A stretch of DNA of 64,000 nt from the IMG/VR virus record IMGVR_UViG_2721755646_000011; one strand, written 5' to 3'. This document shows positions 50,001-59,000 of the stretch, one piece after another. The position numbers were made by a program. Source of the DNA: a virus (Duplodnaviria > Heunggongvirae > Uroviricota > Caudoviricetes). How positions within the stretch are numbered: the stretch's first letter is position 1; each line of letters starts with the position of its first letter.

Positions 50001-53000
50001 GGAAGCGCAGACAGAACTCCACAACTGAGGTTATCAATATCAGAAGTCGCATGGATGTCAAAAATAATAGAGACAGAGACAAATAATACAAACAAATCAT
50101 AGCTATTAGCCCAGAAAAGAGTTGGTACACTAGCCATGAATAACTTCCTAACAACTTGATTTTTTAGTTATTTTTTTCTTCATTCTTGAAAAAGGATGCC
50201 CCGAAAGGGTTCCAGAGTTCGATTTTCTGCGCTTCTGCAAATAATCAAGGGGTTACAAAGTGGTTGCCCCTTTGTTTTTAGTGCTCTTGGTATACCCATT
50301 GGTACATTTAGCGCAATACCATCTGGTATCACTTAAAGACACGAAAAACGTAAGCGTACAGCCTGAACCGTCTGGTCAGAATCTGACGAATTAGACAAAG
50401 TGGTGTCCACCAAATAAGTAGTGGGAACCAAAGTATCAGATATGCAGAAAAATGTGACTCCCGGCAGGCGAAAAGGCTGCCCTAATTATCCTCCCGAATT
50501 TAAACAGCAGCTCGTTGCTGCCTCCTGTGAACCCGGGATATCCATCTCAAAACTTGCTCTTGAAAATGGCATTAACGCCAATCTGTTGTTCAAATGGCGA
50601 CAACAATGGCGCGAGGGAAAGCTGCTATTACCTTCTTCAGAGAGCCCCCAGCTACTTCCTGTGACTCTCGATGCAGCTGCCGAACAGCCAGAATCGCTCG
50701 CAGAGGACCCGGAACCCCTCAGTATCAGCTGTGAGGTAACGTTCCGGCACGGGACGCTCCGCTTCAATGGCAATGTCAGCGAAAAGCTCCTGACTCTGCT
50801 GATACAGGAACTGAAGCGATGATCCCGTTACCTTCCGGGACCAAAATTTGGCTGGTTGCCGGTATCACCGATATGAGAAATGGCTTCAACGGCCTGGCTG
50901 CGAAAGTACAAACGGCGCTGAAAGACGATCCCATGTCCGGCCATGTTTTCATTTTCCGGGGCCGCAGCGGCAGTCAGGTTAAACTGCTGTGGTCCACCGG
51001 TGACGGACTGTGCCTCCTGACCAAACGGCTGGAGCGTGGGCGCTTCGCCTGGCCGTCAGCCCGTGATGGCAAAGTGTTCCTTACGCAGGCGCAGCTGGCG
51101 ATGCTGCTGGAAGGTATCGACTGGCGACAGCCTAAGCGGCTGCTGACCTCCCTGACCATGCTGTAAATCTCTTTATCCTGGTTGTCACAGAATAAGCCCG
51201 GTAAAATACGGGCTTATGAACGACATCTCTTCTGACGACATCTTCCTGCTGAAACAGCGCCTGGCCGAACAGGAAGCGCTGATCCACGCCCTGCAGGAAA
51301 AGCTGAGCAACCGGGAGCGCGAAATAGACCATCTGCAGGCGCAGCTGGATAAACTCCGCCGGATGAACTTCGGCAGTCGTTCCGAAAAAGTCTCCCGCCG
51401 TATCGCACAAATGGAAGCCGATCTGAACCGGCTTCAGAAAGAGAGCGATACGCTGACTGGTAGGGTGTATGACCCGGCAGTACAGCGTCCGTTGCGTCAG
51501 ACCCGCACCCGTAAGCCGTTCCCTGAATCACTACCCCGTGACGAAAAGCGACTGTTGCCTGCGGCGCCGTGCTGCCCGAACTGCGGCGGTTCACTGAGCT
51601 ATCTGGGCGAGGATACCGCCGAACAGCTGGAGTTGATGCGTAGCGCCTTCCGGGTTATCCGGACGGTACGGGAAAAACATGCCTGTACTCAGTGCGATGC
51701 CATCGTGCAGGCACCTGCACCTTCGCGGCCCATCGAGCGGGGTATCGCCGGACCGGGGCTGCTGGCCCGCGTGCTGACCTCGAAGTATGCAGAGCACACC
51801 CCGCTGTATCGCCAGTCAGAAATATACGGCCGGCAAGGTGTGGAGCTGAGGCGTTCACTGCTGTCGGGCTGGGTGGATGCATGCTGCCGGCTGCTGTCTC
51901 CGCTGGAAGAGGCACTTCATGGCTATGTCATGACTGACGGCAAACTCCATGCCGATGATACCCCGGTCCAGGTACTGCTGCCGGGTAATAAGAAGACGAA
52001 GACCGGGCGGTTGTGGGCGTATGTTCGTGATGACCGCAATGCAGGGTCAGCGTTGGCACCTGCAGTGTGGTTCGCTTACAGCCCGGACAGAAAAGGCATC
52101 CATCCGCAGACTCATCTTGCCTGCTTCAGCGGTGTGCTGCAAGCGGATGCGTACGCCGGGTTCAACGAGCTGTATCGCAATGGTGGGATAACGGAAGCTG
52201 CCTGCTGGGCTCATGCCCGCCGAAAGATCCACGATGTGCACGTCCGCATCCCGTCAGCACTGACGGAAGAAGCCCTGGAGCAGATCGGTCAGTTGTACGC
52301 CATAGAGGCGGATATAAGGGGAATGCCGGCAGAGCAGCGGCTTGCTGAACGTCAGCGAAAAACGAAACCGTTGTTGAAATCCCTGGAAAGCTGGTTGCGT
52401 GAAAAGATGAAGACCCTGTCGCGACACTCAGAGTTGGCGAAGGCGTTCGCGTACGCACTTAACCAGTGGCCGGCACTGACGTACTATGCGAACGATGGCT
52501 GGGTGGAAATCGACAACAACATCGCTGAAAATGCCCTGCGGGCGGTCAGTCTGGGTCGTAAAAACTTCCTGTTCTTCGGCTCTGATCATGGTGGTGAGCG
52601 GGGAGCGCTACTGTACAGCCTGATCGGGACGTGCAAACTGAATGACGTGGATCCAGAAAGCTACCTTCGCCATGTGCTTGGCGTCATAGCAGACTGGCCG
52701 GTCAACCGGGTCAGCGAACTGCTTCCGTGGCGCATAGCACTGCCAGCTGAATAACACATCCCCGTCAATACGGCCCTCGCTGTACGCTTACCGAAAAACA
52801 ACTTTTTATCTTTTTGTTTCGCTCAAATTAGTATAAAAAGCCGAACAACAAACAATAAAAAACCATTAACATCAATAGATTATGATGGCTTCAATCTAAA
52901 TAATAGGCTATATAATACTGCAAGACACAACACATGCTGTCACTATGAGTCAACTATTTAGATGATATTAGTGACCTGTTTCAGAGCATTAGCGCAAGGC

Positions 53001-56000: not shown

Positions 56001-59000
56001 GGCGATTTGTGCAGAATGAAGTGGTCAGACATAAACGATGGTCATCTTCACATTGGACAGAGTAAAACAGGAGCCAAAATTGCCATTCCGCTGGCTCTAA
56101 CCATTGACGCACTCGACATCTCACTGGTTGATACACTACAGAAATGCAGGGAGGCCAGCAGCAGTGAAACAATAATCGCATCAACCTATCACGAACCACT
56201 TTCTCCAGCCACAGTATCACGGTATTTAACAAAGGCGCGAAATGCATCCGGGATCTCGTTTGATGGAGACCCACCGACATTTCATGAACTACGTAGTCTG
56301 TCCGCGAGGCTATATCGGAACCAGATTGGCTACAAGTTTGCACAACGTCTTCTTGGACATAAATCTGATTCAATGGCGGCGCATTATAGGGACAGTCGCG
56401 GGCGGGAGTGGGACAAAATTGAAATCGGATAATGATTTTATTTTGACCAATAATGACTTACCAGATTTAACAACTTGATATTTAATAAGATTTTTGAACG
56501 AACAACTTCCATGTCAGAAGGAGGATAAAATCACAAAAACACATTAAAAATCATTATGTTATTTATACAATTGATTAAATGATAGACTGCAAAACGCGAC
56601 AAAACACTACATTTAGAGTCACAATTAATCAATGAGTTAGATGTGATTAGTGACCTGAGACAGAGCATTAGCGCAAGGTGATTTTTTGTCCTCTTGCGCT
56701 AATTTTTTGTCATCAAACATACAGCCAATCAGAAGAGCATAAAGCTGCCAAGCATTATATGTCTTAGTTTTATGCTCATTTTCATTAAAAAAATATATAA
56801 TAAGACTAATATCAGTATAAAATATTTATAACACTTAGAGTAAAAATGTAATCAGCTTATACAACCAACAATAATTTAAACTATAAAAAACAATAACAGA
56901 AACATTTATAATTTATTTTAAGTGTTCAAGCGATAAACTGGTAAATTTAACAACTTAATTTTGAGATCTAAGTCACATCAATCAAGCATTCAAACAGTTA
57001 TATATTAAAGCTGTCCACATCGGATATGTGACACTAATAGTATCAATGGATTGATATTATTAATGGATATAAACATGTAATAAGGATTTATTATGAACAT
57101 TCAACCGACCATACAATCTGGAATCACCTCACAAAACAATCAACATCATCAAACAGAACAAATACCCTCTACACAAATACCGCAATCCGAATTACCTCTA
57201 GGATGCCAAGCTGGATTTGTTGTTAATATTCCAGATGATATACAGCAACATGCACCGGAATGCGGTGAAACAACAGCTCTACTGAGCTTGATAAAAGATA
57301 AAGGTCTGCTCTCAGGGCTAGACGAATATATAGCTCCTCACCTTGAAGAAGGATCCATAGGAAAAAAAACATTGGATATGTTTGGTTTATTCAATGTTAC
57401 CCAAATGGCATTAGAGATACCTAGTTCCGTTTCAGGCATCTCTGGTAAATATGGTGTCCAGCTAAACATTGTAAAACCAGATATTCATCCTACATCAGGT
57501 AATTATTTTTTACAGATATTCCCTCTGCATGATGAAATAGGTTTTAATTTTAAAGACCTTCCTGGCCCGTTAAAAAATGCATTAAGCAACAGTAATATAT
57601 CAACCACTGCAGTGTCGACTATTGCATCGACTGGAACATCAGCCACTACTTCGACGGTAACCACCGAGCCAAAAGACCCAATACCATGGTTTGGATTAAC
57701 AGCTCAAGTGGTTCGTAATCATGGTGTAGAACTTCCTATAGTCAAAACTGAAAATGGATGGAAGCTTGTTGGAGAAACACCACTTACTCCTGATGGGCCG
57801 AAAGCAAATTACACGGAGGAGTGGGTTATCAGACCGGGAGAAGCAGATTTTAAATATGGTGCATCTCCATTACAGGCAACTCTAGGGCTGGAGTTTGGCG
57901 CACATTTCAAGTGGGATTTAGATAACCCTAATACTAAATATGCCGTTCTTACCAATGCTGCCGCAAATGCGCTTGGTGCTTTAGGGGGATTTGCAGTATC
58001 CAGATTTGCTAGTACAGATCCAATGTTAAGTCCTCATATCGGTGCAATGGTTGGGCAAGCAGCAGGGCATGCCATACAGTATAATACCCCTGGATTAAAG
58101 CCAGACACTATTTTATGGTGGGCTGGTGCGACACTGGGGGCTGCCGATTTAAACAAGGCCGAGTTTGAAGTAGCTAGATTCACTGACTATCCTCGTATAT
58201 GGTGGCACGCAAGAGAAGGAGCTATTTTCCCCAATAAAGCAGATATTGAACATGCCACAGGTGCTGATATACGCGCAATGGAAGAAGGTATCCCTGTTGG
58301 ACAGCGGCATCCAAATCCAGAGGATGTGGTAATCGATATCGAAAGCAATGGCTTACCACATCATAATCCATCAAATCATGTTGATATCTTTGATATAATC
58401 CAAGAAACAAGAGTCTAAGCTTTAACTTGTTTATTTTAAAATAATAGCTGAAATGGATGGCAGCTATTATTAATAAGGATTAATATATTTTTTCTAAAAT
58501 ACCCCACAAAATAAACACATCATAAAAATTCTAAATACACACACCTAATCTCAAAAAAAAACAAACTTACTATTTGACTTGGATTATGTTTTTAATCCAA
58601 TATTTTCCGACAACATCTCCACAGAAAAATGCATTTACATAAAGACGCCTTCAAGTCATCTGAAACCTGCCAACCACAGACACCTTCTTATATTCTGGAT
58701 GTCTGCGGCGTTTTTTTACAAATTACTGACAGCCAATACTCTCTCAGAGAAAAATATTTTAACTATCTTTTATAATGAAGTTTCCCTTGATAGGATCATA
58801 AACACATTTATCAGGACTTATAATCATTGATGCCGTTATTGGTTCTCGGGTCAGTGGATGATATGAGCCTTCACTAGCTAAACGAGAAAATGCATCAAAA
58901 TCAAATAAGCAGCATACTGCCGAACTATCTGAATTTTTGACAAACACTCCTTCTTCGGGTCTCTCTAGTGTAATTGGACACTGAATAGACTCTGGCGGGC

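Follow-up and report, generated by a model that had tools for sequence, protein, structure and literature searches.

The 64,000-nt stretch of the Caudoviricetes record IMGVR_UViG_2721755646_000011 in IMG/VR, referred to below at its full length as the window, contains the exchangeable effector locus of an ompW prophage (OI-71), with the genes espM1, nleG, nleF, nleH and nleA. Within this island a hairpin-bearing element is present twice, and its identity and origin are the subject of this analysis. A repeat search of the window gave a 142-nt family of two members, 52897-53038 (copy A) and 56576-56717 (copy B), with 77% identity. Compared in register, the copies were identical at 109 of 142 positions, at 82 of 99 over the core 52940-53038 and at 75 of 91 over 52945-53035, and BLAST of copy A against copy B returned an E value of ~5e-24. 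The 15-mer AGCATTAGCGCAAGG was found exactly twice, and neither the 15-mer search nor BLAST detected a third copy within the 64 kb. An earlier note had described an unexplained element of about 90 bp at 52945-53035 and 56640-56715; both copies proved to be real at these sites, the true repeat being longer and the second interval starting 16 nt late relative to the first. The surroundings were also as the note had given them: copy A abuts a truncated IS256-family fragment at the junction 53038/53039, and copy B lies upstream of nleA, the T-run ending 384 nt before the nleA ATG at 57093.

RNA folding predicted two hairpins on the + strand of both copies, with z = -5.7 for copy B and z = -2.8 for copy A. 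The second of these, TTAGCGCAAG...CTTGCGCTAA followed by T6, was predicted at -17.5 kcal/mol in copy B, where the stem is perfect, and at -12.3 kcal/mol in copy A, where it carries one C.A mismatch; the 10-bp stem that had been called conserved is therefore intact in copy B and broken in copy A.

When copy B was searched against phage genomes with blastn, 78 records were matched, all of them on the int-sense strand. The matched stretch is labelled 'sib retroregulation site' in the record of HK97, 'attP site' together with 'sib transcription processing site' in that of HK022, and 'terminator' in that of phage 434. Lambda, HK97 and HK022 have int first, followed by the P' arm, the core, the P arm and sib, and then by the b region and the tail-fibre genes; both copies were collinear with this region of the three phages in a five-way alignment (A2). 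The element maps to lambda 27538-27634, adjoining the annotated lambda Int-binding sites; mapped through A2, the Int-binding regions 27615-27634 and 27583-27602 both have counterparts in copy A and in copy B (Table 1), and the arm-type sites of the two copies contain GTCAC(T/A)AT and CAGGTCACTAAT. What had been taken for a first hairpin (GTCAC...GTGAC) is, in both copies, the inverted pair of Int arm-type sites. The second hairpin corresponds to lambda 27577-27538, the position of tI/sib, and the distance from the core to the hairpin is 147 nt in lambda, copy A and copy B alike. Over the 60-column sib block copy B was 93% and copy A 88% identical to lambda, and the values against lambda, HK97 and HK022 overall were 93% and 87-88%.

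We are highly confident that both copies represent the distal portion of lambdoid attachment regions, that is, the attP P arm with its two inverted Int arm-type sites and then sib/tI; the homology, the collinearity, the spacing, the predicted structures and the state of int are seen directly. Copy B is located as sib is, distal to int, past attP and on the int-sense strand, and int is absent beside copy A, as it is beside attR of any integrated prophage. The arm-type sites stand at the lambda Int-binding positions, and the core is flanked by the P' arm in copy B or by host B' sequence in copy A, as in attP and attR, respectively. The element is thus an already known one, the lambdoid attP P arm with sib/tI, present here as two independent vestiges, and it was wrong to call it unexplained. 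Two of the earlier suggestions survive in part: it is a recombination site in so far as it is the P arm of a lambdoid attP/attR carrying Int arm-type sites, and a terminator element in so far as it contains the sib/tI hairpin, with nothing pointing to regulation shared by the effector genes. A textbook sib/tI and attP arm removes the apparent mystery, and no new mobile or regulatory element is needed.

The same homology bears on the proposal that we are dealing with one end of some mobile element, miniature or unrecognised, such as a miniature inverted-repeat transposable element (MITE), or with the terminus of an insertion sequence (IS). One copy does touch the IS256 fragment, and ISEc8 lies 40 bp from the core of copy A. 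Nevertheless, lambda, HK97, HK022, 434 and Gally carry this sequence as well, invariably between att core and b region and without a neighbouring IS, which agrees with the statement of the earlier note that it is not an IS end. The IS256 piece is internally truncated, so its junction is no IS end, ISEc8 is bounded by inverted repeats and a target duplication of its own, and the repeat search of the window found no inverted partner or target duplication flanking the element. All the homologs examined (lambda, HK97, HK022, Gally, Stx1a phage, CP-933K and a K-12 lysogen) lie at junctions of int, att and b region, that is, in phage att contexts throughout; the mobile-element end was rejected, and we attach practically no probability to it. 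An inverted repeat upstream of an nle gene also recalls the nle regulatory inverted repeat (NRIR) described for a subset of nle promoters (PMC7142665). NRIR was described for nleB2-type promoters, which were contrasted with the Ler-regulated nleA (PMC7142665), a point judged by the description and not by the motif sequence; moreover, copy A is upstream of no effector gene, and nothing is left over once the full homology to phage sib/attP is taken into account, so that a regulatory repeat of this type has next to no likelihood here.

In lambda, int transcripts from pI end at the tI hairpin and its U-tract and are stable. Transcripts from pL that have been antiterminated by N read through tI, and the U-tract and the next bases then pair with an upstream GACAGAG to form a longer duplex, which is cleaved by RNase III, the int mRNA being degraded from its 3' end afterwards. 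In the prophage, integration at the core parts sib from int, and Int can therefore be made on induction. That the downstream element sib retroregulates int is described in PMC5300877, and PMC2951348 states that Int is expressed differentially from pI and pL in a way that depends on sib, which lies distal to int; for the processing role of RNase III, Plunkett and Echols (1989) are cited in PMC5371410.

The lambda hairpin was predicted at -17.7 kcal/mol, followed by U6, and the likeness of copy B to it extends from the hairpin energy to the predicted read-through duplex. Such a duplex (GACAGAG with UUUUUUGUC) was predicted in lambda and in copy B, at -25.5 and -29.6 kcal/mol, respectively; in copy B, GACAGAG would pair with the U-tract plus GUC over 56656-56715, as it would in lambda. 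Relative to lambda, the loop of copy B has an additional U, and copy B also shows a U->C change. In copy A, which has GTC->ATC and GAGACAGAG->GTTTCAGAG changes, no read-through duplex was predicted. The sib hairpin is nearly invariant among 11 distinct phage and prophage sib sequences, and copy A is the sole carrier of the stem-breaking G->A together with GTC->ATC among them. With its stem mismatch and lost read-through duplex, copy A is therefore decaying. Copy B, on the other hand, matches phage Gally at 100% for the first 60 of the 68 nt at 56653-56720. Both copies share with lambda sib/tI (~27538-27592) the strand relative to int and the core distance; they differ from it in that int is a pseudogene (copy B) or absent (copy A), with nothing left to retroregulate. 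The control of a functional upstream int, which belongs to sib, is missing at both places, the int beside copy B lacking its 5' end and being frameshifted and none lying beside copy A. The element is a member of sib by descent and is vestigial in function.

The two hairpins ending in U6, with their z values, would also suit a prophage small RNA (sRNA) of ~100 nt with an Hfq-type terminator and two paralogous copies, and prophages of enterohaemorrhagic Escherichia coli (EHEC) are rich in sRNAs. We regard this as very unlikely, since tI accounts for the second hairpin and the inverted pair of Int arm-type sites for the first, and Rfam gave no match at E<=1. In the literature no sRNA is reported for OI-71, Esr41 being in OI-43 and the Pas sRNAs in late-gene/Q regions, not at int-att. 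A promoter scan listed none on the + strand within copy A or shortly before it and, near copy B, a single + strand match, a weak one of 9/12 at 56544-56571.

Several points weigh against the assignment to attP P arm and sib/tI. The covariance models of Rfam 15 gave no match at E<=1 over 52000-58000, so that there was no independent RNA-family call, and a simple terminator scan missed both hairpins, its loop limit being 3-8 nt and their apical region 11-15 nt. In this genome, termination at 53029 or 56708 is a prediction only, and cleavage by RNase III is putative. The core of copy B differs from all the phage cores compared (A4). Finally, a perfect sib in copy B beside a dead int fits recent acquisition, but could mean retained function.

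Copy B closes a module of HK022 type that is complete but dead and consists of a truncated int, P' arm, core, P arm and sib. The int-attP-sib region of HK022 aligned continuously to 55432-56712, thus over 1.28 kb, at 83.5% nt identity, and a 246-amino-acid open reading frame (ORF) within the integrase pseudogene (int') was 89-90% identical to Int of HK022, mEp235, Gally and Stx1a phages. RefSeq describes int' as a frameshifted integrase missing its N-terminus and fused to a tail-fibre C-terminal remnant. Copy B has both arms, which run collinear with attP of two free phages, Gally and HK022, where this site is intact and unrecombined (A4); attL and attR of an Stx1a prophage have one arm each (A4). 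We therefore read copy B as an unrecombined attP. From the module of HK022, Gally and Stx1a phages it differs in its int', which has no 5' end and is frameshifted, in its core/overlap, and in lying inside the cargo region of another prophage and not at a functional phage att. The island contains no cognate functional int. Copy B stands upstream of nleA because nleA lies in the phage b region adjoining attP.

The preservation of copy B raises the question of whether it was co-opted as a working terminator or insulator shielding the nleA promoter region from the dead int/nleH side. Its hairpin, U-tract and read-through partner are intact, with 60 nt identical to a free phage despite the int pseudogene, and it is on the same strand as nleA at the distance given above. 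However, copy B has no known or predicted promoter directed into it (pI would lie in the deleted xis), the neighbours nleH and nleF are on the other strand, recent acquisition explains the preservation equally well, and decay of the element in this island is seen in copy A. Such co-option therefore seems unlikely.

Copy A is the attR-type end of a different phage of lambda att type, with a ybhB-like host flank, core, P arm and sib. Its core, TTAGTATAAAAAGCC, has one A fewer than the lambda core TTAGTATAAAAAAGC, and the two arm-type sites are at homologous positions and inverted as in the lambda attP P arm (P1/P2), which is also the case in copy B. What distinguishes copy A from lambda attP is that it is joined to a host-type B' flank, as in attR, and not to P'; copy B is distinguished by a core unlike that of lambda or HK022. 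The host flank of copy A is split by ISEc8, whose 8-bp target duplication CGAAAAAC is intact at 50342-50349 (the end of the outer B' flank) and 52792-52799. With ISEc8 removed, the sequence left of the core resembles the ybhB side of the K-12 lambda attB at 81-87% over ~87 bp, the match to 4332-4418 of the K-12 locus L005 being split between 52839-52794 and 50349-50311; the variant of the ybhB flank in copy A is GACACGAAAAAC… with an 8-bp deletion. The ISEc8-free junction was found at 100% identity in 248 complete genomes, for example that of E2865. The ISEc8 insertion is clean and strain-polymorphic, and it is carried by EDL933-type O157:H7 genomes.

The order flank, core, P arm, sib, cargo and tail fibre is the same at attR of the K-12 lambda lysogen and, in EDL933, at the attR of CP-933K (OI-36), a prophage in the natural attB next to ybhB. 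The latter attR was 80.9% identical over 282 nt to copy A with its flank; the cargo in these comparisons is effectors or ea genes. The difference from CP-933K is that copy A is not beside ybhB and has ~87 bp of diverged flank, in an ompW prophage near trp. Directly after sib of copy A, the IS256 fragment replaces the phage b-region DNA, the truncation falling 9 bp past the T-run. Coordinates of all these features are collected in Table 1.

Table 1. Features of copies A and B and of their immediate surroundings in the window.
Feature	Coordinates	Strand	Basis or remark
Outer B' flank, copy A	50311..50349	.	87% to K-12 L005 4380-4418 (A3); ybhB-proximal side of lambda attB
ISEc8 (IS66 family)	50350..52791	+	Terminal inverted repeats, 8-bp duplication, annotation; splits the flank, outside the element
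Inner B' flank, copy A (…GTTTCGCTCAAA)	52792..52827	.	81.5% to K-12 L005 4332-4385 (A3); adjoins the core
Lambda-type att core, copy A (TTAGTATAAAAAGCC)	52828..52842	.	Mapped from lambda core 27724-27738 through A2
P arm, copy A	52843..52988	.	Homologs of lambda Int-binding sites 2 and 1
Int-binding site 2 homolog, copy A (GTCACTAT)	52932-52951	.	Lambda 27615-27634, mapped through A2
Int-binding site 1 homolog, copy A (TTAGTGACCTG)	52964-52983	.	Lambda 27583-27602, mapped through A2
sib/tI, copy A, degenerate	52989..53029	+	Hairpin 52989-53023, T6 53024-53029; homology stops at 53038
Truncated IS256-family transposase fragment	53039..53673	+	ORFs; RefSeq 'missing N-terminus, frameshifted'
Tail-fibre C-terminal remnant and terminator	55305..55444	-	Fused to int'; 92-93% direct repeat of 59379-59517
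HK022-type integrase pseudogene (int')	55432..56432	+	First ~68 nt missing, frameshifted; HK022 alignment, annotation
C-terminal ORF of int', 246 amino acids	55692-56432	+	89-90% amino acid identity to HK022 and Stx1a-phage Int
P' arm, copy B attP (TAATGATTTTATTTTGACCAATAATGAC…)	56433..56506	.	Collinear with lambda, HK97, HK022, Gally (A2, A4)
Core/overlap, copy B attP (TTCCATGTCAGAAGG)	56507..56521	.	Unlike lambda and HK022 cores
P arm, copy B	56522..56667	.	Arm-type sites 56611-56630 (lambda 27615-27634) and 56643-56662 (lambda 27583-27602); A2, A4
sib/tI, copy B	56656..56715	+	Hairpin 56668-56702, T6 56703-56708, predicted read-through duplex

From left to right, the locus in the window begins with att scars (including a serT-like one), followed by B', core, P arm and sib of copy A, the IS256 fragment, nleF and nleH; after nleH come the tail-fibre 3' remnant, int', P', core, P arm and sib of copy B, then nleA and nleG', and finally the tail-fibre 3' end (59379-59517) and the tail genes.

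Chromosome-derived attB sequences have been described in the effector loci of ompW prophages (PPompW), which gain effectors by phage-into-prophage integration (Nakamura et al., 2021; PMC8112680); neither ybhB nor sib is mentioned in PMC8112680. Copy A resembles these attB-in-prophage sites in having a chromosome-derived att flank in the same locus, with 81-87% identity against the 81-87% reported for attB-in-PP_1 to _3. The reported sites are empty BOB' sites from yecE, ykgJ-ecpE and ompW, whereas the flank of copy A comes from the lambda attB (ybhC-ybhB) and is the B' half only, joined to a P arm. BLAST found the ybhC-side (B) arm to be absent from the window, so what is present is the B' (ybhB) side, already joined to the phage P arm; the flank could be an occupied attB-in-prophage site whose other junction was deleted. 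Exact 25-mers of the diverged flank on the ybhB side, scanned for in 185,579 species-representative genomes to find its donor, gave no match, and the pattern of blocks shared with K-12 was found at five loci only (L012-L016), all with a K-12-type flank, from which no donor could be named. Their sources are E. coli, Shigella, an Escherichia sp. and one short contig that bears the label of a Bacillota metagenome-assembled genome. At four of the five a lambda-type P arm is joined to the core, that is, attB is occupied; one of the occupied loci is the Bacillota-labelled contig, 2.5 kb long and probably an Escherichia contamination.

Beyond the window there are further copies, one of those in O157 genomes being that at attR of CP-933K. 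Sequence like copy B was present in 2,066 of 5,426 complete E. coli genomes, at a median of one place and a maximum of six, and the O157:H7 genomes listed had it at three to four places. Copy A with its flank had relatives of >=99% solely in the same island (541 records), and the next best matches, at <=90%, were lambda-type attR junctions at the natural attB.

The two copies belong to two phage lineages. Over the compared P-arm-plus-sib stretch (A2 columns 150-296), A and B were 73% identical to each other; copy A was 84% identical to lambda and 80% to HK022 over the same stretch, and copy B 84% to HK022 and 80% to lambda. Their left sides also differ, being a host B' flank in copy A and a P' arm with int in copy B, and so do their cores. 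That both arose by a segmental duplication within the island is extremely unlikely: the 140-bp direct repeat at 55305-55444 and 59379-59517 does show that repeated blocks exist here, but the copies are only 73-77% identical, their cores (lambda-type and other) and left sides are different, and each has its own phage that is nearer to it than the other copy is. Because of this divergence, the other cores and left sides and the different nearest phages, A and B are independent remnants and not the products of a duplication.

The element is accordingly present twice since remnants of phage ends are stacked in the effector locus, and not for being mobile or for regulating effectors. Both copies are best read as fossils because there is no functional int in the window; they now appear to be functionless, though copy B could still terminate stray transcription. 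As for how they came to be stacked, the module of copy B lies in the b region of the ompW prophage, directly before the cargo nleA and nleG'. The phage of copy A would have carried nleF and nleH as cargo after sib, its remainder having been deleted and its junction struck by ISEc8 and by the IS256 fragment. The 140-bp tail-fibre repeats (92-93% identical) bracket a 4.07-kb module of int', attP, sib of copy B, nleA and nleG', and we infer that a second phage genome may have recombined homologously with the tail-fibre 3' end, after which a deletion would have run from the tail fibre into int; the order of events as a whole is likewise put forward as a probable one. The block of tail-fibre 3' end and terminator (AAAACCGGAGCCGGACTCCGGTTTT) occurs three times in the window, at 2178-2344, 55305-55444 and 59379-59517, with 89-93% identity, and the last two are candidate recombination substrates.

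Other traces of attachment sites were observed in the same region. The stretch 50184-50270 is ~80% identical to the 3' half of a serT-type tRNA-Ser, from the anticodon loop on, plus the downstream terminator; ARAGORN called no tRNA in this piece, which holds the 3' half only. Lying ~40 bp left of the lambda-type B' flank, the serT-like fragment looks like another att scar, of a tRNA-targeting element. The 21-bp attB-in-PP_1 sequence (GTCATGCAGTTAAAGTGGCGG), reported to serve for integration within ompW prophages (Nakamura et al., 2021; PMC8112680), was found as an exact single copy at 44707-44727 on the - strand.

Positions 1-44406 hold a second, apparently complete lambdoid prophage with tail, head, lysis and regulatory genes on the - strand. 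It ends with an integrase gene at 43105-44235 (+) and then a 126-bp ompW-derived piece (44281-44406), which was recognised by homology to strain E2865, in which yciE is its neighbour. The arrangement suggests that two prophages stand in tandem at ompW. A block of ~60 bp is present at 214-271 and at 44944-45009 (77-86% identity); it directly follows sib in HK97 and in lambda lies in b-region intergenic space, between the HNH endonuclease and a hypothetical protein of the lysogen record. Fragments of IS256-family 3' ends, 78-82% identical, are found beside effector genes at 53539-53706 and 45427-45523 and at 43172-43335 of L008 (CP-933K in EDL933), the last adjoining nleH1-1, which hints at old IS-mediated rearrangements common to effector loci.

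We tentatively suggest, at somewhat less than even likelihood, that copy A records an undescribed step in the assembly of O157 OI-71/PPompW, in which a phage of lambda att type carrying nleH and nleF arrived by one of two routes and was then deleted down to its attR-sib-cargo end. It might have used a fourth, lambda-attB-like attB-in-prophage site, or it might have brought ~87 bp of ybhB-side host DNA with it through an aberrant excision of lambda-bio type from an E. coli relative. If this is true, the locus would be a readable stack of at least five att scars, together with the serT-like fragment, the ompW/yecE-type att and the HK022-type attP. What is modestly new here is a lambda-type attR fossil with a captured host flank inside a PPompW effector locus and, likewise to a modest degree, the reading of the assembly history of an island from sib and P-arm remnants. 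Such remnants serve as landmarks of former phage ends, and they indicate that the nleH/nleF and nleA/nleG blocks entered the ompW-prophage locus as b-region cargo of two different lambdoid phages, an origin that fits, and slightly extends, the published 'prophage-in-prophage' accumulation of effectors.

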